In this document: in pieces, positions 2,667-59,133 of the stretch
How the letters are laid out: every line of letters starts with the position of its first letter
How positions within the stretch are numbered: position 1 is the first letter of the stretch
Origin: a virus
Taxonomy: Duplodnaviria > Caudoviricetes
Length of the DNA stretch: 64,000 bases
Virus record (IMG/VR): IMGVR_UViG_3300021255_000041
Coordinates: 561-64,560 of that record
Direction: 5' to 3' (one strand)
Made by a program: the position numbers and the translations under genes
Notes under the pieces: model-generated
What the model was told of the DNA's origin: nothing
Seen by the model: the letters and a program-made list of their open reading frames with translations, nothing else
Databases searched by the model: none

Positions 2667-2689
2667 AGTTTTCTCCTTATGTATATGTA

Positions 2690-2718
2690 TTGACCTCGAT
2701 TAGGCCACGGTATAAAAT
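2690..2718 (+). promoter_or_regulatory. Host sigmaA-type promoter for the 2749 gene
   Basis: TTGACC (2690-2695), 17 nt, TAAAAT (2713-2718). Confidence 0.65.
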
Positions 2719-2748
2719 ACTTATAACGTATTTCAAGGGGGTATAGAC

Positions 2749-3444
2749 ATGAGAAACGAGATTGACCTTTGCGGAACTCACATCCCAATCAATGACATAA
2801 AAGATTATCGAGTCGTATATCGCGAATACATTTATCGACCTGTGTATAAAGAATGTGAAGGCAGTCTGAAAAGACTCATTGGTGGTAAATATGAATTTGC
2901 AGAGATGATACCGTTCGCGGCTATACTCTCGAAAGAAGATCGAGAGTTTAAACTGGCAACCGCTGATTTCAACGCAAAAACAATCAGAGATTCGATTATC
3001 AAAGATGTCGCTATAGGCGCCATGTCTTTGGTTACTCATAAAATCGAAAGAAAGCATTATCGTTGTAAAAACATAGCGGGACGAGTCTTTTCGATATACC
3101 TTGATGATGTGCCAGCTTCTGTTATCCGCGCTGACGGCAGAATCATTGATGTTTATAAAAACGACGAACTATACCCGCAACTTGGAGAACCAATAGCCCC
3201 CACAATACTTACAATAAAGGCCCTTCAAATTTCAGCGTCCAAGGAAACCCATTTGTTTTATGGAAATAGAATCCAGTTAAACGACGCCGATGAAACTTAC
3301 CAGCATTTACGCCAAACGATTTCAGACTTTGAAGAATTGGCTCGTATAGAGCAGCAGCCGCAAAAACAACTATCAATAAATGCCAAAGCAGAAAAAATAT
3401 CAAACAAGCTGCCAAAATTATTTGTTCGATCCGAAAAGAAATAA
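2749..3444 (+). CDS. Hypothetical protein, moron-like; the only credible plus-strand gene
   Basis: 231 aa ORF with RBS (AAGGGGG) and own sigmaA promoter, filling the gap between minus-strand genes. Confidence 0.75.
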   Translation: MRNEIDLCGTHIPINDIKDYRVVYREYIYRPVYKECEGSLKRLIGGKYEFAEMIPFAAILSKEDREFKLATADFNAKTIRDSIIKDVAIGAMSLVTHKIERKHYRCKNIAGRVFSIYLDDVPASVIRADGRIIDVYKNDELYPQLGEPIAPTILTIKALQISASKETHLFYGNRIQLNDADETYQHLRQTISDFEELARIEQQPQKQLSINAKAEKISNKLPKLFVRSEKK

Positions 3445-3445
3445 G

Positions 3446-3991
3446 TTAGCTTTTAAGAGTATGAATTGCAACCGCGATCGATGCTGCCGAAGCGCCAATT
3501 GCAAGAACGTCCCCGGCTGTTGCCAAAACATCGGAAACATACCGTCTTCCGCTTGCAGCATTCTCGGTCACAGCATTCTTATAATTTCTTTCGAGATTCA
3601 TTCTGTTAATTGCATCCTGCAATTCTTTATTAGACATTTTAGATAAATCCATTGATTTGCGGATTTTTTCTTCCTTATGTCTTGCGGATCTCGATGCAAG
3701 ATTTGACGCTTTTTGTGCAGCTGCGCTAGCCGAATTCTGTGCGCTAGACGCGTTTCTATAATCAGACGCCACGGCATCGTGTATTCCAGCTTTGGCGTTT
3801 CTTGAAGAATTCGGATTGATTTTACCGGTTTCGGGATCAAAGTCAACACGCTTTGCGTTATCACTTATCTGACCCAATCTTCTTTTACCTGCTTCGGTCA
3901 GCGTCCCGTCTTCATTCTGATATCGTCGTACGCCCCACTTTTGGCCTTTTATTCCGTGATGATAAAGAACATCTGTATTATACTTACTCAT
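3446..3991 (-). CDS. HHGxKGQKWG-tag protein (DUF7211-like), putative virion cargo
   Basis: Start moved to MSKYNTDVLYHHGIKGQKWGVRRYQ (RBS AGGAGG); Ala/Gly-rich hydrophobic C-terminal helix. Confidence 0.8.
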   Translation of the reverse strand: MSKYNTDVLYHHGIKGQKWGVRRYQNEDGTLTEAGKRRLGQISDNAKRVDFDPETGKINPNSSRNAKAGIHDAVASDYRNASSAQNSASAAAQKASNLASRSARHKEEKIRKSMDLSKMSNKELQDAINRMNLERNYKNAVTENAASGRRYVSDVLATAGDVLAIGASAASIAVAIHTLKS

Positions 3992-4054
3992 GATAACCCT
4001 CCTATGGGGCCAAACGTAAGAGACCACGATTTTTTCGTAGCCTCTCTTTTTTAG

Positions 4055-4420
4055 TTACTTTAAAACCTTTAGTTCATCTAAAATGTCTGATAACCTTTCA
4101 CCGTTTTTCTTTCTTTTATCGATTTCGACCCATTCCGAATTTGTTAATTCTCGTCTGAGCTTCCAATAATGTCCTAAACTTCTATCGTAACAATACAGTT
4201 CCTTGAGATCCTGCTCTTTTTTCAGATTCGCTCGCCTAGCCATGCTTTTCGTTATAGCCTTGGTTGCAGCAAACGCCCCTGGTCCGCAAATCAGGATCAA
4301 TTCCTTATTGTCATTCAAGAATTTCATCGCATCAGAAACTTTCTCTCGAAACCAAATTTTCCTCTGAGCCTTCTTCGTCTGTTTCTTAAGATCTTCGAAT
4401 GTGATTCTATCAGCTTCCAT
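4055..4420 (-). CDS. Hypothetical protein in a phage-promoter cassette
   Basis: 121 aa, RBS GAGAGGAG, preceded by promoter motif 4453-4478. Confidence 0.75.
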   Translation of the reverse strand: MEADRITFEDLKKQTKKAQRKIWFREKVSDAMKFLNDNKELILICGPGAFAATKAITKSMARRANLKKEQDLKELYCYDRSLGHYWKLRRELTNSEWVEIDKRKKNGERLSDILDELKVLK

Positions 4421-4492: not shown

Positions 4493-4522
4493 AAAAAGAG
4501 CCTCGTTCAAGAAGCTCTTTTT
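4493..4522. terminator. Bidirectional intrinsic terminator
   Basis: AAAAAGAGC...GCTCTTTTT overlapping the stop of the 81-aa ORF. Confidence 0.65.
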
Positions 4523-4752
4523 AGCGTTTCAGGATCAACAAGCGTCGTTTTCTCGAAAAGACCTTCGCGTATAAAATCAGTAAATCCCATAAAAGTTACA
4601 TTATCCGTGTTTTTATTTACAACCCAGGTGATATTATTGTAATATTGGCCTGGGTTTGATTCTAAGCACACATAATAATTTACATCATCTTCTCGAATCC
4701 AAAAGATTTTTTCATGCAATAGCTCTTTCAAAGAACCGTATACTTTTTCCAT
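4507..4752 (-). CDS. Small protein, candidate immunity partner
   Basis: 81 aa, RBS GAAAGGAGG, directly downstream of the papain-fold ORF and followed by a terminator. Confidence 0.6.
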   Translation of the reverse strand: MEKVYGSLKELLHEKIFWIREDDVNYYVCLESNPGQYYNNITWVVNKNTDNVTFMGFTDFIREGLFEKTTLVDPETLKRAS

Positions 4753-4783
4753 TTGATCCTCCTTTCTTAAAATATAATGTTAA

Positions 4784-5731
4784 TCATGCGAAATTTACAT
4801 ATTTTTCCAAAGCATCAATATTAATTTCAGCGCCATCTAGGCGAGCAACTGTGAAAAAATCACGAGGGTTCATCATCTTCCAATATATCATAACACCGTT
4901 ATCTTTTTCACCAGCTTGGAAATCGTAAAACGATACTTTACCATCTTTAATATCCCAGTTAAAAGCATGTCCACCAGGACGTATTTTATGATCCCATTGA
5001 ATGCTGCAAACACCAGATGCATTTTGACCGAATTTATTTATCAAAAATTCAGCCGCATCTTCCGGTGATTTCCCAAATTTTACAGCACTGCCGTCTAACA
5101 CGCGCGCGCCCTTGAAACAATCTTCTATCAAACCGCCTAATAGTTGTTGATTACCGCCAGTTCCCTTCGCCGTGACATCATATCCAGCCATTCGCAGAAA
5201 GCCGGCAACTGCGCAATTCGTGCAATTGTTTTGACCTTCCAAAGTACTGCGTAATGGGTTCGCCTTGGCTAAGCTTTCGCTTAATGTTTCCTTACTAGCT
5301 AAACGTTTTAAACGCGAGGCGCTTTTACCGGCAACATCACTAAACGTTTCTTCGACAGAATCAACATTACCGACAAGTTTATGCTGTTTCATAAAAGTAT
5401 CGGTAACTATATTTTTGCCTATATTAATGTTGTTGTCAAGTATTCCAGACTGATACAGTTTATATCCGCCGTACGCAGCCAATGCCGTTCCTACGGCAGC
5501 AGTCCCAATCTTCAAAGCTCGTTTCTGATTATCCGTAAGGCTATATCTATCGGTACCGCCATCCTTTTTATTGTTTCTTTTATCTTTATCCAGGCTTTTT
5601 CGCCAGCCAGCTCGTCGTTCTGAAGCCGAATGATCGGATTCGCCCAATGGATATGGAGGGCCGTTTCTACGTCCCCACTTCTGCCCTAGAATCCCATGAT
5701 GATAAAGATAAGAAGGACTATAATTACTCAT
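4784..5731 (-). CDS. HHG-tag protein with C-terminal papain-fold (Tox-PL-like) domain
   Basis: Start MSNYSPSYLYHHGILGQKWG (RBS AGGAGG); NNC170TNC, GGH255AF, YD270FQ give a Cys-His-Asp triad. Confidence 0.75.
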   Translation of the reverse strand: MSNYSPSYLYHHGILGQKWGRRNGPPYPLGESDHSASERRAGWRKSLDKDKRNNKKDGGTDRYSLTDNQKRALKIGTAAVGTALAAYGGYKLYQSGILDNNINIGKNIVTDTFMKQHKLVGNVDSVEETFSDVAGKSASRLKRLASKETLSESLAKANPLRSTLEGQNNCTNCAVAGFLRMAGYDVTAKGTGGNQQLLGGLIEDCFKGARVLDGSAVKFGKSPEDAAEFLINKFGQNASGVCSIQWDHKIRPGGHAFNWDIKDGKVSFYDFQAGEKDNGVMIYWKMMNPRDFFTVARLDGAEINIDALEKYVNFA

Positions 5732-6080
5732 CAGTATCCTCCTGACTATCGAAGTCGGCCTGTATTTTAAGACGCCATTCAAACTCGTTGATCTGCTGCC
5801 GAATGACATCAATCACAGCGCCGCTCAAAGGCGGATCAAAAACAAGTTTAACTTTGAGAAACATGTACGATTTGACCAGCTGCAGCTGAGTGCTCTCCGG
5901 TATAAAATTTGTCCAGTTTTCGTCTTTGCCGGTTATGGCGAACCCATCTGTCGGTCCAACTCCGAGCTGGTGTAATATCATGAATACGGAGTTTATGTGC
6001 ATAATCAGATCCGCGTCGAAATGCTCATACTCCTCCGTGATGCCGAGCATCTTTTTTATAGAGGTCAATATACTTTCCAT
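5724..6080 (-). CDS. Head-tail connector/adaptor-like protein
   Basis: 118 aa MESILTSIKKMLGI...HINSVF, helical adaptor-like sequence in the packaging region. Confidence 0.55.
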   Translation of the reverse strand: MESILTSIKKMLGITEEYEHFDADLIMHINSVFMILHQLGVGPTDGFAITGKDENWTNFIPESTQLQLVKSYMFLKVKLVFDPPLSGAVIDVIRQQINEFEWRLKIQADFDSQEDTDE

Positions 6081-7462: not shown

Positions 7463-10234
7463 TTAACTTTCTTTGTATTTGTTTACAGTTGACACTGAAA
7501 CACCTAAAGCATCAGCAATTTCCTGATTTGTGTAACCAGAAGCTTTCATTGCCTGGAGCTTATTTATTTTAGCTGGGGTCATTGTTTTTGCCGTACGAGG
7601 TGTAGCTCTTTTTCTAAGATCATCACCGTCAACATACTTAATAATCTGACGCAATTTGTTTTCTGATATTGCACCAGACTGAATTGCTTCCCATTCACGA
7701 TCAGAAAGCTTAATCGGCTGTCTTAGTGCGCCGACTCTGATTCGAGCAGAAGTCAGTTCACGTTGAGCAATCTTCTTAAGTTCTTTCTTTTCGATAGCAG
7801 GATTGTCCTGTTTTATAGCATCAACACGGGCTTTAGTCATGATCTGGGCGGTGCGCTCTCTAGGGGCGTTTTTAAGTGCCAGGTTGAGCCGGGAGTCAAG
7901 AGAATCTGCCTCTTTCTTATAAACTTTATTAGCAGAGGGGGAGTATTCTATACGCCCGGTATTGATCATCTCTTTGCGGGCCGAGTTTGCCATAGCCTTA
8001 AGGTTATTGGCATAGTTAGCATAGGCCAGCTCCACAGGGGTACGCCGGTTGGATACAAGGGTCATAGCGTCCGATGTCTCCATCATAGCGTTACTCTTCT
8101 GAGTCCTGGTAATTACTTTGCCTTTCTTATTGACATATGTCAGATTGTCAGCTGTTTTCCAGGAAACTGAGCCGTCCTCATTAATAATGGGGCTACCCTG
8201 TCTCTTAGGTACTGACCTCTGTGACTTGGCACGGGAGATGATAGTGGCGGCACCTTCGTGATACTTACCGTCTTCCCCTATATGTCCCTGATACTTTCTC
8301 TTAAGCTCAGCAATGTGGTTCTCCTTCTCGCTGCGCTTATAGTCCAGGTTATGCTTGTATGCATCAATAACTACCATATTGTGCATTGTCGCCCAGGCAA
8401 GTTCCTTTTCGGTCGCACCAAACTGGGTCATATCGCTCAGAAGGTTCGACACAGTGCCCATCTCTTTCTGAACAGCACCCTTGTTCATTCTCTTGTAGGG
8501 AACCGAGGTGCTGCCTGGACCGTATTTGTCTTTGGCATCGAAGCCCTCTAAGTCTTTGAGAGGCGGCGTCGACTGGACTTTAACTCTGTCCGATAATGGT
8601 ATGACCATAACGGTATCACCGTCAAAGTCAGCTCCGGACAGACGATCCGCAGTAGCCTTCGTAATACCGATCGCATCTTTCGGGTTCGTACCAATAACAT
8701 CTTTGCCTTCCTGCACTTTGTTGTTAACTTTGCAGATAGGGATCTGATAAGTACCCTCATGCGGGAATCTGACAAGAGCTACTCTTTCGCCGTCTCTGTA
8801 GTTAGGCGCATAGACCTCGTTATCGTTGATTGTGGTCAAAGGAAGGATGACCTGATAACTCTGACGAGGAAGTGACGCACCCTGCAGATGGACCGCAGCA
8901 GAATCGCAGTCATCCGCAAAGGACTTAAGAAGCTCTTTCTTGACCGTCGGATTGGTCAGCGATCTGATCTCCTCAAGTTCCATCTTTTTATCCGCAATGG
9001 ACAGATTGAGCTGGTTATTAATAAGCTTCATATCCTGCTTAGCAAGGAACTGTGATGGCAGCTTATTCTTCCAGTCCCCCCAGTCTCCTTCATCGCCACG
9101 TTTATTGATCAGTGAAAGGTGCTCTTTACCGTCGTCTCCTTCATAATAGCTCTGACCGCCTACTTCTTTGATCAACGACCCAAATGGGTTCTTAGGGTCG
9201 TCTGTAATCTGCTTCAATACCGAATGGTCTTTCGGTCCAAGAGCGGGAGTTCCTTTCTTCTTGTTGGTGTTAAACATGACGTCCACGCCATCAGGAAGGT
9301 TGTCGGAATATATAGCCATGCCCTTGAGGTAATGAGTACCATCGACCAGGATGCGAACCTGTGCGTAATGACTGTCTCCGAGAGAAAGGTCTTTTACACC
9401 TCTACGGATCTCGATCACGCCATCCTTCGCTTCACCACCATCTTCGGCGTAGCGAATAGCCAGTCGCTTTGAGTCCATGCTTGCAGGATATTCAAAGGCT
9501 TTTCTGATTTCCCGTCCATTGTCGACAAGGATCTTGTCGTAGTCCTTAAGCGAATGTACGTCTTCGAAGTTGTAAATGTCTTTATGCTGCGTACCGGGAG
9601 GACATAACACTTTAAGGTTGGTCTGTCTTCCGGGATTGGTTGCCTGAGGTACGCCACCGCCATAGACCTCGTATCCTTCGGCCTTGAGCAATTCAAGAGC
9701 CTGGTCGAATTTCTCTTTGGATACATTGCACTCACGCTCGACACCAGCACCAACATCGATCATACCTTTCTTATTCACAGCTTCTCTGAGATAATCGGCA
9801 GTGACCTTTGCGCTGTCCATGCGTGCTTCTGCATTCTCATTGAGAAGCGATCTGATGGAGGATTCACTGTTATAACCCATTTCTTCTGCGATCTGGGTTC
9901 GCGTTAAGCCTTTTTCCTGAAGCTCTTTTGCTTTGGCAACTTTGGCTGATCTTTCCTCGTTTTTAGCAAGGGCATAGTAAGCTCTGAACTGAGTGGTTGA
10001 TAAATTCAAAGACTTGGCAATGGCTGTATCACCTTTGAAGGTTTCGCCAGTATCAGGATCCGTCCAGGTGAATCCTTCTTTACGCATCTTCTTGACACGA
10101 CTCACGAAATCGCCGCTATGCTGATTGGGATTTTCACCGCTGCCCAATGGATATCTGCCTGATCCACGTCCAGGTGCTCCGTCCATTTTACTGACACCGT
10201 AGTGCATTAAGATGTCTTCAGCCACTTTGTTCAT
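7463..10234 (-). CDS. Single-subunit two-barrel (double-psi) RNA polymerase with HTH domains
   Basis: GADFDGD at 8615-8629 (D536-D540), R489FPH, AQVRILVDGTHYLKG (RdRP-type QxR..KG); HTHs at N- and C-termini. Confidence 0.8.
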   Translation of the reverse strand: MNKVAEDILMHYGVSKMDGAPGRGSGRYPLGSGENPNQHSGDFVSRVKKMRKEGFTWTDPDTGETFKGDTAIAKSLNLSTTQFRAYYALAKNEERSAKVAKAKELQEKGLTRTQIAEEMGYNSESSIRSLLNENAEARMDSAKVTADYLREAVNKKGMIDVGAGVERECNVSKEKFDQALELLKAEGYEVYGGGVPQATNPGRQTNLKVLCPPGTQHKDIYNFEDVHSLKDYDKILVDNGREIRKAFEYPASMDSKRLAIRYAEDGGEAKDGVIEIRRGVKDLSLGDSHYAQVRILVDGTHYLKGMAIYSDNLPDGVDVMFNTNKKKGTPALGPKDHSVLKQITDDPKNPFGSLIKEVGGQSYYEGDDGKEHLSLINKRGDEGDWGDWKNKLPSQFLAKQDMKLINNQLNLSIADKKMELEEIRSLTNPTVKKELLKSFADDCDSAAVHLQGASLPRQSYQVILPLTTINDNEVYAPNYRDGERVALVRFPHEGTYQIPICKVNNKVQEGKDVIGTNPKDAIGITKATADRLSGADFDGDTVMVIPLSDRVKVQSTPPLKDLEGFDAKDKYGPGSTSVPYKRMNKGAVQKEMGTVSNLLSDMTQFGATEKELAWATMHNMVVIDAYKHNLDYKRSEKENHIAELKRKYQGHIGEDGKYHEGAATIISRAKSQRSVPKRQGSPIINEDGSVSWKTADNLTYVNKKGKVITRTQKSNAMMETSDAMTLVSNRRTPVELAYANYANNLKAMANSARKEMINTGRIEYSPSANKVYKKEADSLDSRLNLALKNAPRERTAQIMTKARVDAIKQDNPAIEKKELKKIAQRELTSARIRVGALRQPIKLSDREWEAIQSGAISENKLRQIIKYVDGDDLRKRATPRTAKTMTPAKINKLQAMKASGYTNQEIADALGVSVSTVNKYKES

Positions 10235-36789: not shown

Positions 36790-38004
36790 TTACATAAACT
36801 GGGGTATTTTGTCGAAAGCCTCCTGCTTCTCCTGAAGCTTCCTTCGATCCCTATGATAATACTGTTCGGTACAGGCTATGGTCGTGTGTCCCATCTGACT
36901 CTCAATCAACTTCTGATCCATTCCATAGTCGAGTAGTATCGTACCATATGTCTTACGGATCTTGTGCGGTGATCTTGGCGGGATACCGACTTTTCCACAG
37001 ATCAGATATAGCCGTTTACGAATCTTGACTGTGTTTACACGCTCGCCATGCCTGTCCAAAAATATAAACTCCCCAAACGGATTGCAGAGTTTCAGCTTGT
37101 CCACAATCCACTTCTGACTCGTCGGGACAATGACGGTACGGTATCCTGCCGGCGTCTTAGGAAAGTCGTCGACGTAATAGATATACCGCCCTGTCTCAGA
37201 ATCCCTCTTTCGAGTCTCCGTTCGCTTGATATTAAAGACCGTCCCATGGAAGTCCTCATGTTTCAAGGCTACAAGCTCCCCAACTCGTATCCCCGTCACA
37301 AACATCAAAGCGATCCCGATGTTCCTCGGATCAGGATTAGCCCGAATGTAATCCATGATCTTCTCAATCTCGTCATCGTAGAACACCTCTTTCTCGTCGT
37401 CCACAACTCTCTTCTTGAAATCGCTGTCCGACACATCCAGCTCAAGAAAGAAATGCTCCACGTCCATGGCAGTCAGCTTTCTTTTCTTAGCTCTCTTGAG
37501 AAACCCTTTGGTGATCCCTTTGAGATTCGCAAAAGCTTTTGCAGTGAGATTAAAATCCACAATGCAGTCGCAGAGAAAATCCTCCCAGTCCGTCTCGTCA
37601 AGATGCTTAATACGGTTTTTGCCGAATGAGCCATAAAACCGGTTAAAGATCTGTGTGTTAATCAAATGGGTACTCGGCTTGATCTGCCTCCTTGCAAGCC
37701 TCCTGTCGTTCCACTCGCTAAACACTTCCCTGACTGTAGGGTTCTCGATCTCCTCTTTCCAGTAGTCTACAATTATGTCGTATAATTCTTCTTTTGTACT
37801 CCTCCTGTATAATTTTCTATGCTCTGGTGTGTCCTCTGCGGGCAAGTATGTACACCATTGTCCTTTTTGGTTAACCCAGATCTTATGCGTATGCATCTCA
37901 AGATATTTATTGCGCTCTCTCATTTCGATCCGCGCTTCTATTATTTGTAAATCTAATATATCATTCTCGATAGCATATCGCAATAATTCGCTCTGACTAA
38001 TCAT
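36790..38004 (-). CDS. int: Tyrosine integrase
   Basis: TGIRVGEL (R), HKIR (HxxR), MGH, QYY catalytic residues; start MISQSE. Confidence 0.9.
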   Translation of the reverse strand: MISQSELLRYAIENDILDLQIIEARIEMRERNKYLEMHTHKIWVNQKGQWCTYLPAEDTPEHRKLYRRSTKEELYDIIVDYWKEEIENPTVREVFSEWNDRRLARRQIKPSTHLINTQIFNRFYGSFGKNRIKHLDETDWEDFLCDCIVDFNLTAKAFANLKGITKGFLKRAKKRKLTAMDVEHFFLELDVSDSDFKKRVVDDEKEVFYDDEIEKIMDYIRANPDPRNIGIALMFVTGIRVGELVALKHEDFHGTVFNIKRTETRKRDSETGRYIYYVDDFPKTPAGYRTVIVPTSQKWIVDKLKLCNPFGEFIFLDRHGERVNTVKIRKRLYLICGKVGIPPRSPHKIRKTYGTILLDYGMDQKLIESQMGHTTIACTEQYYHRDRRKLQEKQEAFDKIPQFM

Positions 38005-38109
38005 GGTAAACTGACGCCTCACCCGATAAAAATAAAAGGGCGTGTAAGAGATTTCCTCCACAGCCCTTTATCAAATTAATACGGTTTTACGTCACCTGCG
38101 TCTCCCTGT

Positions 38110-38220
38110 TTAGTCCTTCCACATGGCTTTGTCACAGAAATTGCCGACGCCTTCAGCAAGAATATAAACACATGCGAGTACCGCAGCAAGGACACCGATT
38201 ACGACAAATACAGCTTTCAA
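38110..38220 (-). CDS. 36-aa membrane peptide coupled to the holin (not in ORF track)
   Basis: TTG start overlapping holin TGA; MKAVFVVIGVLAAVLACVYILAEGVGNFCDKAMWKD; RBS GAGGTG. Confidence 0.5.
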   Translation of the reverse strand: MKAVFVVIGVLAAVLACVYILAEGVGNFCDKAMWKD

Positions 38221-38684
38221 GATGTCTTCACCTCTTCTTTATCGGTCTTTGTCATGTCTTCGATATGGTCCTGGATCTGGTCGATTGGACTGTACATGAA
38301 CTGTGGAACCTTGACTCCGATGTCCCTGAGGTTCTCCAGAATGGACAGGAATTCGTTACAAATAATCCAGACGCACACGATGCACGCAAATAAATAGTTC
38401 ACAGGGAAATTAATCCCGAGTTGCTTGGATGCATAAGCCAGCAGCATATCGATCATGGCTCCTACCGCCACAAGCAGCCACATGCCTATCTTTTTGGCTA
38501 TTCCGTGAATGTGCTTGTATGACTTCGGCGTATCTCCTCTATAGGGAATGGCCATGAGGCCGGATGCGTAGTCGATAATGTTACTGGTCAGCATAAGGAC
38601 CAGGGGCAGCGCCAACACCCCGAACAGAGATGTCAGCACTCCCCAGATAGTAACGAAGATTGCTTTTGTGTATGTTTCTTCCAT
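38217..38684 (-). CDS. Holin (phage holin 4-like)
   Basis: Three TM segments, IIDYASG, NEFLSILENL..IGV.VP. Confidence 0.85.
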   Translation of the reverse strand: MEETYTKAIFVTIWGVLTSLFGVLALPLVLMLTSNIIDYASGLMAIPYRGDTPKSYKHIHGIAKKIGMWLLVAVGAMIDMLLAYASKQLGINFPVNYLFACIVCVWIICNEFLSILENLRDIGVKVPQFMYSPIDQIQDHIEDMTKTDKEEVKTS

Positions 38685-57612: not shown

Positions 57613-59133
57613 TTATACCGTTCGAACTACGTGATCGAGAGAAATCCAGCCGACTCCGGACTTCAACTTGCCCCATCCGGACTTGGATCCGAGACCAGGC
57701 TTAACGCCAACGATCGTGTATACACCGGGTTCAATAAACTGAACTCTTGTGTAGCCTTTTCCAGGACCAGTCCTGATGTTCAGATTATCAATCGTTACTT
57801 TAACTTTGAACGAGTTATCGGAACTCGCCGCAGTATTCTTCCCCGTGTAAACGAGCTTCCCATCGTTGTCGAATACGCTGTAGCCTGAATGTTCATCTGC
57901 GCATTTCTTTGCCAGATCGAGGTTATGGAACGCTCCAAGCTGGCTATTTTGATTTTCCCATTTGAGTCTCACACGATACCAGCTTTCCTCTTCGACCGGC
58001 TCGTCATCGATCACCACATCAGATACTTCGACCATCTCCTCGTCGAACTTTGTAAGATTAAACCGCTCGATGATAGAGCAGATCTTGCTTACATAGTTCG
58101 GATCAGTCGCATAGCCGCCATTCTTGATGATAGAAATAGCTTTCTTATAATCTGTGCAGCCCTTCAGACCGGCATAACGAAGCTTCGAACCGTTCTTTGC
58201 GCCAAGCAAATATGCGGAATGATCCGCAATAGAATCTTCAATACACGGATACTTCCTGAAATCAGCAGGTACAGTGATATACTGTTCGTTGACAAATTCC
58301 TTGGTGTTCTTTGTGTAGATGGACTTCCCATCCCAAGTGCTTCCAGACCATGAATTGCCAGAAAGTTTTTTCTTCATCCCGAAACAGTTATTTGCGTTCT
58401 GAGCCAGATCGGTCTTGCCGTATCCACTCTCAAGAACAAACTGTGCCAAGGTAACACTTGCCAGAATTCCAGATTTCTTCATATCAGCCGTACAAGACGG
58501 ACCGACTTTATTGATCGTCTCTTCTTCAGACAGGTGTCTTAAATCGGTCGCCTGAAGTCCGGAAGCTTTTACTGCCGTTTTCGGCTGTGTTTTCTTATTG
58601 GTTGTTTTTACTCCGAGAAGAGCGTTGACTTCATCGGCGATCTGTCCGAGCCTGTTGTAAATGTAGTCGCCGGGACAAGCTTTGTTTGCAAACCAGCGAT
58701 GCACAGTCATGTTCTGTTTATCGACCTGTCCGATAAGAGATTTATCAGCTTTCCATTTAAGCTCTTTGATACCGTTCCGCTTACAGATATCGGCACAGAG
58801 CTTAATCAGCGATTTATAAACAGCGTCGTTGATCGCGTATGGATGCGTCTTGTCCGATGCACACTCAATAGTGACGGCTCGATTATCATTTGAACTTGAT
58901 GACGAGCACCAGCTGCGATCACCTTCGTCAACGCAAAGTGCAATCCGACCATCAGTACCGATCCCGTAATTACAGCTGGCGCCGACGCTAGGGCTTGTAA
59001 AACAAGCACAAATCCCCTCCGCCGTGAGCTGTCCCACTACGCAGTGGATTGTGATGGTATCAATCTTGTGGTTTCTCGGACTATTTTTATTCGGGCTAAT
59101 TAGCGTATAGCTCACTAAAGGACTATTGCTCAT
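57613..59133 (-). CDS. Modular endolysin: amidase_2 + glucosaminidase + SH3-like
   Basis: ITIHC, SCNY, TIEC, HRWFANKACPG; AQFVLESGYG, NNCFGMK, GYATD; LNIRTGPG..WGKLKSG.GWISL. Confidence 0.85.
   Translation of the reverse strand: MSNSPLVSYTLISPNKNSPRNHKIDTITIHCVVGQLTAEGICACFTSPSVGASCNYGIGTDGRIALCVDEGDRSWCSSSSSNDNRAVTIECASDKTHPYAINDAVYKSLIKLCADICKRNGIKELKWKADKSLIGQVDKQNMTVHRWFANKACPGDYIYNRLGQIADEVNALLGVKTTNKKTQPKTAVKASGLQATDLRHLSEEETINKVGPSCTADMKKSGILASVTLAQFVLESGYGKTDLAQNANNCFGMKKKLSGNSWSGSTWDGKSIYTKNTKEFVNEQYITVPADFRKYPCIEDSIADHSAYLLGAKNGSKLRYAGLKGCTDYKKAISIIKNGGYATDPNYVSKICSIIERFNLTKFDEEMVEVSDVVIDDEPVEEESWYRVRLKWENQNSQLGAFHNLDLAKKCADEHSGYSVFDNDGKLVYTGKNTAASSDNSFKVKVTIDNLNIRTGPGKGYTRVQFIEPGVYTIVGVKPGLGSKSGWGKLKSGVGWISLDHVVRTV

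Follow-up and report, generated by a model that had tools for sequence, protein, structure and literature searches.

A putative Tox-PL1 papain-fold toxin and its candidate immunity protein on a small tagged carrier in the head-gene block of a temperate phage

It seems on balance rather probable that the two genes described here, a toxin and its immunity gene, form a cassette that a phage carries among its head genes as interchangeable cargo, and that its enzyme is addressed to the virion for use in the next host. They lie in a window of 64,000 nucleotides (the whole stretch of DNA analysed, to which the coordinates of features refer) taken from a complete phage genome of 64,560 bp, a 64.5-kb phage, and every gene of the locus is on the minus strand. 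The toxin gene, P0001 (4784..5731, minus strand), encodes a protein of 315 residues composed of an N-terminal tag, a basic linker, a Gly/Ala helix and a Tox-PL1 domain, and the candidate immunity or inhibitor gene 3' of it, P0002 (4507..4752, minus strand), encodes 81 residues. In the mechanism that we propose the enzyme would be made late, along with the connector gene, and would possess a catalytic centre of Cys170, His255 and Asp270 in addition to Asn169 and Gln272. In the producing cell the 81-residue partner would lie across the catalytic cleft and keep the enzyme inactive, while tag, basic linker and Gly/Ala helix would most likely address it to the procapsid or virion, and it would then, no longer bound by its inhibitor, pass with the DNA into the cell infected next and modify a cytoplasmic host protein there. 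That the enzyme is toxic, that it is packaged, ejected and freed of its inhibitor, and what it acts on are what we infer, and its toxicity is not a given.

The C-terminal domain (aa 140-315; 4787..5314, minus strand) belongs by its Pfam match and by its model to the Tox-PL1 / Gln_amidase papain-fold domains. It covers profile positions 1-113 of the 114 in PF15644 with 38.7 bits against a cut-off of 24.1 (E 2.5e-9), and a six-frame search of the genome gave 40.8 bits for the same family. The signature NC-H-DxQ, which defines Tox-PL1 (Zhang et al. 2012, PMC3482391), is found at exactly the positions proposed in a first-pass annotation made from the DNA alone, the minus-strand codons being N169 at 5225-5227, C170 at 5222-5224, H255 at 4967-4969, D270 at 4922-4924 and Q272 at 4916-4918, and among 42 relatives reaching down to 25% identity C170 and H255 are invariant while conservation reaches 90% or more at N169, D270 and Q272. 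The papain-like domain that the same annotation had predicted is borne out by the structural model as well, since pLDDT exceeds 90 over the C-terminal 176 residues (aa 140-315) and the modelled fold is papain-like. A PDB sequence search with P0001 found no match, and all strong structural matches are papain-fold cysteine enzymes, among them SpvD (Z 11.7, rmsd 3.3 A, 154 aligned residues; also the top Foldseek match, E 9.5e-4), OspI (Z 9.6, rmsd 3.9 A, 142 aligned), C39 leader-peptide peptidases (Z about 8.5, rmsd 3.9 A, about 130 aligned), the Cpe1 toxin (PDB 9l5u; Z 8.0, rmsd 3.7 A, 122 aligned) and pseudomurein endoisopeptidase (Z 7.9, rmsd 3.9 A, 130 aligned).

Sequence and model are thus best explained by a Tox-PL1 cysteine hydrolase with putative activity as a protease or glutamine deamidase. 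The nearest solved structures, those of Shigella OspI, the Ubc13 glutamine deamidase, and of the Salmonella cysteine hydrolase SpvD, share the papain-like fold and the Cys-His-Asp centre with the model, a likeness from which cleavage and deamidation by the phage enzyme cannot be told apart; these two proteins are however only 14-18% identical to it and, being type III effectors, have eukaryotic proteins as their targets and lack an immunity partner. The bacterial Tox-PL1 polymorphic toxins are closer in arrangement, for here as there PF15644 is matched above its cut-off, NC-H-DxQ and the papain fold are present, the domain is C-terminal and an immunity gene, in our case a candidate, lies downstream. 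Their immunity proteins are however of the Imm35 or SUKH type, and they are delivered by T7SS, T6SS, TcdB/TcaC and other routes and not by way of a phage tag.

N-terminal to the catalytic domain, model and hydropathy place a long helix with a weakly hydrophobic, Gly/Ala-rich stretch at aa 67-95 (5447..5533, minus strand), which is kept in relatives and is preceded by a basic region with a net charge of +7 over aa 1-73. A Gly/Ala hydrophobic helix had been noted at first pass and is indeed present, although its hydropathy maximum at aa 72-88 (Kyte-Doolittle 17-mer mean 1.14) stays well under the usual transmembrane level of 1.6. This value bears directly on the notion that the basic N-terminus and the helix form a signal-anchor and that the protein is a membrane-anchored, SAR-type cell-wall hydrolase, an NlpC/P60- or CHAP-like peptidase working outside the membrane in lysis or entry. 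Such a function would account for the order of a basic region followed by a Gly/Ala-rich helix, and papain-fold enzymes do include cell-wall peptidases, as the match to pseudomurein endoisopeptidase illustrates, but besides the low hydropathy of the helix the family is Tox-PL1 with effectors working in the cytosol as its best structural matches, the partner protein has no signal peptide and could meet the enzyme only in the cytoplasm, and the phage has holin and endolysin-type genes of its own. We regard this explanation as very improbable indeed and set it aside on these grounds.

The tag itself comprises aa 1-30 (5642..5731, minus strand) and is of the DUF7211 type, reading L-x-H-H-G-I-L-G-Q-K-W-G ... 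N-G-P-P-Y-P-L with the first part numbered L9-x-H11-H12-G13...W19-G20. The invariant H-x-G..G..W-G core is present in P0001, and G13, G16 and W19 are invariant among its relatives. The tag had been part of the early reading. Against a tag profile that we made from 205 relatives P0001 scores 61 bits, and its scores against the 25-position DUF7211 profile (PF23847) lie below the curated cut-off of 27 bits, both in hmmscan (19.1 bits, E 8.5e-4) and in the genome search (22.8 bits, E 7e-6); many full-length homologues of P0001 do carry a precomputed PF23847 match. The tag has pLDDT below 50 and is, as far as the model goes, disordered on its own. A literature search found no paper on DUF7211 or PF23847, and no experiment on P0001, its family or the DUF7211 tag.

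In related phages the same tag is found on at least 74 unrelated protein bodies. Across 79 viral loci, which were retrieved by their likeness to P0001, it stands at the head of 205 ORFs whose bodies fall into 74 clusters, and when 63 body representatives were compared with Pfam GNAT domains were found in two and Tox-PL1 in one, and the rest gave nothing known apart from the DUF7211 tag. Proteins that match P0001 in the tag alone are 65-83% identical to it there, compared with at most 55% for full-length relatives. A second tagged, cargo-like gene of 181 aa occurs in the phage itself (3446..3991, minus strand, with its ATG at 3991 and the ORF open from a GTG at 4027); its DUF7211 scores (31.6 and 33.9 bits) are above the cut-off, and it belongs to phrog_32444 and encodes a C-terminal Gly/Ala hydrophobic helix. 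In Lactococcus phage 1706, orf7 lies between connector and TerL and shows the DUF7211 motif twice, at 27.6 and 24.8 bits; its record calls it a 'structural protein', the one bench-derived hint towards packaging and a label that is said to derive from the virion mass spectrometry of Garneau and co-workers in 2008. The arrangement agrees with that of polymorphic toxin systems, in which a conserved N-terminal trafficking module is joined to varied C-terminal bodies and followed by a cognate immunity gene (Zhang et al. 2012), and it upholds the earlier description of the locus as polymorphic insofar as one tag recurs on many bodies with no relation to each other and the slot of the cassette varies, but not with regard to the C-terminus of P0001, which is not hypervariable. 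A homologue search with P0001 gave 1463 matches, the best 120 of which are full length at about 50% identity, and as judged from sequence the full-length architecture is a large and stable family.

The setting of these tagged genes is relevant to the question of whether the enzyme is packaged at all. One might imagine that the pair works in the producing cell, for instance as a late host-takeover or anti-defence enzyme dosed by its inhibitor, or as an addiction or exclusion module resembling a toxin-antitoxin system, with the tag serving in targeting to a membrane, a complex or the like; the tag is after all disordered in the model and listed only as a DUF, and the Gly/Ala helix could be an element of membrane association. 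We find this distinctly unlikely, since tagged genes cluster with connector, TerL and portal genes (TerL or portal being found in the flank of 111 of 155 loci), since the tagged phage 1706 protein is annotated as structural, since actinophage Tox-PL1 domains are fused to head proteins or encoded beside them, and since a 1:1 stoichiometric inhibitor made together with an enzyme meant for the same cell is hard to rationalize. A virion address is the preferred reading, and a working analogy for it is offered by phage T4, where capsid-targeting sequences, short N-terminal peptides, are found on the otherwise unrelated proteins IPI-III and Alt that are loaded into the head, lose this leader to the head protease and are co-injected with the DNA. 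The DUF7211 tag would act in a similar way, but it has no sequence relation to the T4 leader, and the second motif copy in phage 1706 orf7 is internal, which would be needless for a purely N-terminal leader.

The 81-residue partner is preceded by a strong ribosome binding site, AAAGGAGGA, and begins after a gap of 31 nt from the toxin stop codon. No signal peptide or transmembrane segment was seen in it and it is predicted to be cytoplasmic. A search for its family converged on 24 ORFs in the 79 viral loci, and directly upstream of all 24 lies a Tox-PL1 ORF, whereas none is preceded by another tagged gene. The linkage, which had been suspected from the single locus, furthermore holds in bacterial genomes (76 loci), where 21 of 30 Tox-PL1 ORFs have a member of the family directly downstream and 21 of 24 members directly follow Tox-PL1, the remaining three being second copies or located nearby. 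The family, which comprises 382 representative clusters (about 380 at 50% identity), is evolutionarily locked to Tox-PL1 genes. Identities of toxin and partner co-vary (Pearson 0.56, with none of 2000 Mantel permutations as high), a correlation that may reflect shared descent alone.

The partner belongs to an unnamed family. No match to a Pfam immunity family was found among the 24 members at E up to 1, Imm35, SUKH and phrog_3585 gave no match when tested on the 81-residue protein and its relatives, and Pfam, NCBIfam and PHROG returned no family for it. A comparison of the partner profile with PDB sequences yielded chance-level rows only (E 0.2 or worse). The model of P0002 has a pLDDT of 89.8 and finds no clear solved relative, since the best Foldseek E is 0.14 and the best VIA-align match (Z 4.5, 3.5 A, 56 aligned residues) is in the noise range. 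A protein atlas gave no feature match and, by structure, only unnamed viral clusters and a weak PepSY-like row (TM 0.46). PepSY was also touched by one member of the family (E 0.021), which is a lead and not a finding. The partners in actinophages, annotated 'immunity protein' and matching phrog_3585 with E values from 1e-29 to 1e-37, are another family; profile comparison with two of them gave a probability of 4-10%, over a common Y-D-x(4)-V-x-K-x-T-G stretch, and a very distant relation is possible on this basis.

Co-folding of toxin and partner supports a predicted binding of P0002 across the catalytic cleft, as expected from the first-pass reading of the two as a pair. The score was 0.89 compared with 0.49 for the best of three controls. 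Among solved complexes 58 of 80 came up to that mark, as did 2 of 110 mismatched pairs, although these calibration counts apply only roughly here because our own alignments were used. Contacts agreed to at least 94% between runs and the partner had a pLDDT of at least 88. As its fold is unlike that of any solved inhibitor, a pass owed to recall of a known structure by the predictor is unlikely. The modelled interface takes in residues 164-171, 250-256, 270 and 272-273 and thereby the catalytic centre. A comparable system is the Cpe1-Cpi1 pair, in which a papain-like protease toxin cleaving GyrB and ParE is accompanied by its immunity protein (PMC12136450); there too an antibacterial papain-fold toxin, which is also a structural neighbour of our enzyme, has a small cognate immunity gene adjoining it. 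Cpe1 is however a toxin of Gram-negative bacteria that travels by T6SS or CDI, and the interface predicted here would cover the catalytic residues themselves.

An inhibitor of this kind might also serve to time a processing enzyme, and we have therefore considered whether the Tox-PL1 protein trims the tags, linkers or helices of other cargo or of itself, in the capsid or after ejection, with the partner keeping it from cutting too early in the cytoplasm. A releasing-peptidase role has been called probable for some Tox-PL1 versions (Zhang et al. 2012, PMC3482391; PMC10318531), the enzyme and its possible substrates bear the same tag, and the structural neighbours include C39 leader-peptide peptidases. 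Nevertheless the 79 viral loci with the tag contained no more than 33 Tox-PL1 ORFs, despite having been picked by likeness to P0001, and both FP_oengus and phage 1706 have tagged proteins with no such enzyme nearby, so that tagged cargo does not generally depend on it. In addition the capsid protein of the phage already comes with a head maturation protease fused to it (phrog_3270), and it is toxins that typically have a fast-evolving active-site inhibitor of their own. A role as releasing peptidase is unlikely for these reasons, and a toxin destined for the next host remains the reading that we prefer.

The position of the cassette is consistent with late expression. A head-to-tail connector gene (5724..6080, minus strand; PF24829, E 2e-38; phrog_4247, 'virion structural protein') overlaps with its 3' end the start of the toxin gene, which is therefore read together with the late structural genes; the toxin gene lies between the connector and TerL genes and has the ribosome binding site GGAGGA 7 nt 5' of its ATG. 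That the 81-aa ORF (4752-4507) is followed by a terminator had been observed before and agrees with our analysis, in that a hairpin with a 12-pair stem, a 6-nt loop and a T run (4493..4522, minus strand) begins where the small ORF has its stop codon. This terminator-like element would close a connector-toxin-immunity transcription unit. The segment was also said to look AT-rich, and its overall GC content of 39.8% is indeed at the 4th percentile relative to a window mean of 45.4%, but while this holds for the small ORF at 33.7% (1st percentile) and for the spacer that follows at 29.1%, the toxin gene at 41.9% is not strongly AT-rich. The cassette occurs in differing slots of a conserved HNH-connector-TerL-portal backbone in which TerL is 65-79% identical. 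The 3' neighbour of the immunity gene, which encodes a basic protein of 121 aa, P0136 (4055..4420, minus strand), recurs in many related loci and follows the toxin and immunity genes in at least 12 of them regardless of the backbone slot; a similarity search with P0136 found unnamed viral clusters only.

The phage is temperate, as a tyrosine integrase gene is present at 36790-38061, and it is best explained as a siphophage of the 1706/Oengus lineage infecting gut Clostridia. Related phages reside as prophages in the genomes of Ruminococcus, Oscillospiraceae and Lachnospiraceae, and a megablast search of the locus against cultured phages gave no match. Such a lifestyle invites the model put forward for MuF toxins followed by a small downstream ORF (PMC5576092), according to which toxin on or with particles from a few induced cells would harm non-lysogenic competitors or newly infected cells while immunity protects kin carrying the prophage, so that the lysogen population and not the infecting phage benefits. 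Tandem second copies of the immunity family are found in two loci, as in polyimmunity loci, and would fit this model. However, the immunity gene follows the toxin by those 31 nt in a late operon, and the region has no more promoter-like sites than shuffled sequence does; no promoter of its own was detected for the immunity gene, and expression from the prophage, and with it protection of the lysogen, is therefore not evident. We consider a weapon of the lysogen rather unlikely, and it should also be mentioned that the packaging step, which we infer, is common to this model and to delivery into the next host for the benefit of the infecting phage, so that the difference is one of purpose and not of mechanism.

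Temperate phages are known to carry MuF polymorphic toxins, some of them MuF-Tox-PL1 fusions (Zhang et al. 2012, PMC3482391; Jamet et al. 2017, PMC5576092), and the present locus resembles these in that a toxin domain is encoded among the DNA-packaging or head genes of a temperate phage that infects Gram-positive bacteria, in that a small ORF immediately downstream is the presumed immunity gene, and in that virion delivery is a proposal in both. The same Tox-PL1 domain is found on the MuF side in gp4 of Arthrobacter phage BarretLemon and in gene 4 of Microbacterium phage GardenState, the latter being annotated as a capsid maturation protease/MuF-like fusion, and in actinophages Tox-PL1 is fused to or located beside head proteins and followed by the gene annotated 'immunity protein'. 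Here, however, the carrier is not a folded head protein but a disordered tag of about 30 residues with a linker and a helix, and independence of MuF, as first proposed, is confirmed by the absence of a MuF domain (PF04233) from P0001 and, at E up to 1, from the complete 64,560-bp genome. To our knowledge the other toxin/immunity pairs that phages carry all sit on the MuF head protein, and for those, too, delivery is a proposal.

A bolder version of the preferred reading holds that tag, linker and helix constitute a general, previously undescribed address for head loading and ejection across the 1706/Oengus lineage, in place of the MuF carrier, and that the 81-residue protein is an active-site plug of new fold that would be left behind at packaging, so that the enzyme would be active only in the next host; this we put forward tentatively, as a conceivable extension that may well not hold in full. 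By analogy the locus may be seen as the known phage theme of toxin and antidote on a new carrier, with virion delivery as a proposal. The same toxin domain that MuF proteins carry is found here on a different and much smaller carrier, a tag of about 30 residues known to Pfam only as a DUF, and a large lineage of gut-Clostridia phages joins this tag to dozens of unrelated proteins. The partner family, confidently folded and with no recognizable solved relative, furthermore provides a new candidate inhibitor of papain-type enzymes. If the tag is indeed a packaging address, it would give a simple rule for which proteins these phages inject with their DNA, a possible means of directing proteins of choice into phage heads, and a catalogue of candidate host-takeover and anti-defence effectors in abundant gut phages.

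The toxin gene P0001 runs on the minus strand from its ATG at 5731 to a stop codon at 4784-4786 and encodes 315 residues; its start overlaps the 3' end of the preceding connector gene, with a GGAGGA ribosome-binding site 7 nt 5' of the ATG. A gap of 31 nt separates its stop from the partner ORF P0002 (4752-4507, minus strand), which encodes 81 residues behind a strong ribosome-binding site and at whose stop codon a terminator-like hairpin begins (4522-4493, minus strand; 12-pair stem and T run). Coordinates, ribosome-binding sites and hairpin thus agree with the order of tag, helix, catalytic motif, small ORF and terminator proposed in the first-pass annotation. Its further statement that the segment is more AT-rich than its flanks holds for the partner ORF, which together with the spacer following it (29.1% GC) forms the GC minimum (33.7%, 1st percentile), but not for the toxin gene, which at 41.9% is not markedly AT-rich; the toxin-partner segment as a whole has 39.8% GC against 45.4% in the window (4th percentile).

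Residues 168-274 of P0001 match the Pfam family PF15644 (Gln_amidase, 'papain fold toxin 1') with 38.7 bits (cut-off 24.1), and a six-frame search found this to be the single such domain in the genome (40.8 bits). Across 42 aligned relatives, with identities as low as 25%, C170 and H255 do not vary and N169, D270 and Q272 are conserved in at least 90%, so that by sequence the conserved residues match the NC-H-DxQ signature defining Tox-PL1 (Zhang et al., PMC3482391). The AlphaFold model made from this alignment is confident for residues 140-315 (pLDDT >90), with the first 60 residues disordered and residues 67-116 helical at lower confidence, and its top structure matches are papain-fold cysteine enzymes only, namely SpvD (Z 11.7; 3.3 Å over 154 residues), OspI (Z 9.6; 3.9 Å over 142 residues), C39 peptidases (Z about 8.5), staphopain (Z 8.1) and the Cpe1 toxin (Z 8.0). 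SpvD is likewise the best Foldseek match (E 9.5e-4), and the papain-like Tox-PL domain read from the sequence at first is hence upheld by Pfam, motif and model alike. A function as cell-wall hydrolase is highly improbable. Sequence and fold cannot tell a protease from a deamidase here, since the nearest structures include both kinds. The Tox-PL1 literature leaves the choice between 'releasing peptidase or poison' open (PMC10318531), and that P0001 is a peptidase processing other cargo seems unlikely.

The small partner has no family in Pfam, NCBIfam or PHROG, but it is closely tied to Tox-PL1. When all ORFs in the 79 viral loci fetched with P0001 were searched with an iterated profile until convergence, the family comprised 24 members, all 24 directly downstream of a Tox-PL1 ORF and none after other tagged genes. 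Conversely, 23 of the 33 Tox-PL1 ORFs in these loci have a recognised partner directly downstream, the others mostly being followed by an unclassified ORF of 54-88 aa at the same place or by the contig end. The linkage was replicated in 76 loci from bacterial genomes (21 of 30 Tox-PL1 ORFs), where three further family members either form a second copy in tandem or are located nearby. Such second copies, placed right behind the first at L096:5343-5552 and L099:3367-3636, resemble the polyimmunity arrays in polymorphic toxin loci of bacteria. Pairwise identities of toxin domain and partner furthermore co-vary (Pearson 0.56, with none of 2000 permutations as high), for which shared descent alone could suffice. 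Searched exhaustively with the partner profile, 1.84 billion representatives yielded 382 clusters with E of at most 0.001, and almost all of these are stand-alone proteins 64-108 aa in length. A handful of repetitive, very long proteins (P0137 of 2121 aa, P0214, P0249 and others) match profile positions 37-66 up to 21 times, probably by resemblance of beta-hairpin repeats and not by homology.

The model of P0002 is confident (pLDDT 89.8) and shows a short helix, a meander of four strands and helices at the C-terminus. Co-folding of P0001 residues 140-315 with P0002, each with its own alignment, scored 0.89 against 0.49 for the best of three controls and passed a mark that solved complexes attained in 58 of 80 cases and mismatched pairs in 2 of 110, counts that are only rough here because own alignments were used. 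The runs share at least 94% of contacts with partner pLDDT of at least 88, and the predicted interface joins partner residues 31-41 and 54-62 to residues 164-171, 250-256, 270 and 272-273 of the enzyme, which constitute the catalytic centre. As a prediction, the model supports binding of P0002 to the catalytic domain. No solved inhibitor among the structure matches resembles the partner fold, and it is therefore unlikely that the pass reflects a memorised known complex.

Fusions of Tox-PL1 to the head protein MuF were described from prophages in 2012 (PMC3482391), and a 2017 study catalogued MuF toxins with small ORFs behind them (PMC5576092). The complete genome of 64,560 bp has no MuF domain, in keeping with the original description of the effector as MuF-independent. 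Cultured actinophages also carry Tox-PL1 in head-module genes, and in BarretLemon (gp4) and Equemioh13 (gp3) the next gene is annotated 'immunity protein' (phrog_3585), whereas the P0002 family matches neither phrog_3585 nor any Pfam immunity family; profile comparison with two actinophage partners gave only 4-10% probability, over a common Y-D-x(4)-V-x-K-x-T-G stretch.

With Pfam DUF7211 the N-terminal tag of P0001 reaches 19.1 and 22.8 bits, short of the 27-bit cut-off, and a profile made from 205 tagged relatives gives it 61 bits. DUF7211 was not mentioned in the literature searched. A basic region of net charge +7 precedes the helix at residues 72-88, which is weakly hydrophobic and below transmembrane level (17-residue hydropathy mean 1.14). 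The only other clearly tagged gene of the genome (3446-3991, minus strand; 181 aa; phrog_32444) has DUF7211 above cut-off and a C-terminal Gly/Ala-rich hydrophobic helix, and since a stretch with hydropathy of at least 1.0 occurs in 222 of the 354 tagged ORFs from the fetched loci, such a helix may be part of the carrier module. The start of the YonO-like RNA polymerase gene (7463-10234, minus strand; 923 aa) half-matches DUF7211 profile positions 4-13 at 10193-10222 (14.6 bits; genome-search E 0.0025). Two Tox-PL1 proteins (L043:4100-5272 and L054:5198-6628) lack the canonical tag and have another leader containing I-A-H, which may be a variant address peptide.

Orf7 of Lactococcus phage 1706 (L162:2501-3889), annotated 'structural protein', lies between connector and TerL, exactly the cargo-gene place of the present phage, and has two DUF7211 motifs (27.6 and 24.8 bits) near residues 31 and 181. 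The second shows that the motif can also stand elsewhere than at the N-terminus; orf7 would be either two fused cargo units or a case of the tag acting from within the protein. The label reportedly goes back to virion mass spectrometry by Garneau et al. in 2008. The orf7 annotation is the sole bench-derived hint that tagged proteins reside in the virion, and an indirect one. An intracellular module that is never packaged is quite improbable.

The tag occurs on 205 ORFs across the 79 viral loci with bodies falling into 74 clusters, among which Pfam recognised only GNAT and Tox-PL1 domains (63 representatives). The backbone genes show good conservation (TerL identities of 65-79% across related phages), while the toxin-partner cassette sits between HNH and connector, connector and TerL, or TerL and portal depending on the phage. 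The label 'polymorphic' is justified for tag and cassette because of these body clusters and shifting slots; it does not extend to the 315-aa architecture, which by its sequence matches is a stable family (the best 120 of 1463 being full length at about 50% identity). P0136, a basic 121-aa protein resembling only unnamed viral clusters, is encoded after the partner gene beyond the terminator (4055-4420, minus strand), and since such a gene follows the partner gene in at least 12 related loci, whatever the slot, it may be a third cassette member. Between the second tagged gene and TerL a 231-aa plus-strand ORF (2749-3444) overlaps a 126-aa minus-strand ORF (2677-3057); neither has a family match, and one of the two is presumably the real gene.

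The window covers almost all of a virus record that is complete and has direct terminal repeats. Besides the possible source sample, a second sample from that study, with the label gut metagenome, contains most of the window. Relatives have hosts among Ruminococcus, Oscillospiraceae, Lachnospiraceae and related Clostridia. The YonO-like single-subunit RNA polymerase and the HNH-connector-TerL-portal-protease block mark a lineage including Lactococcus phage 1706, Faecalibacterium phage FP_oengus and several actinophage clusters (bioRxiv 10.1101/842583). The phage also has a protease-capsid fusion and holin and endolysin-type genes; a 506-aa two-domain endolysin/amidase-type gene (57613-59133, minus strand) lies among the tail genes, well away from the holin gene (38217-38684, minus strand) next to the integrase. 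With its tyrosine integrase the phage is temperate, and a weapon benefiting the lysogen has a small but real chance. We favour a virion-delivered effector instead. Its first step is well supported by computation: a cytoplasmic partner would cap the catalytic cleft of a late-expressed papain-fold hydrolase and so prevent its activity in the producing cell. The tag-linker-helix module would then load the enzyme into the particle, and upon ejection into a new cell the enzyme would be rid of its inhibitor and may cleave or deamidate a host protein.
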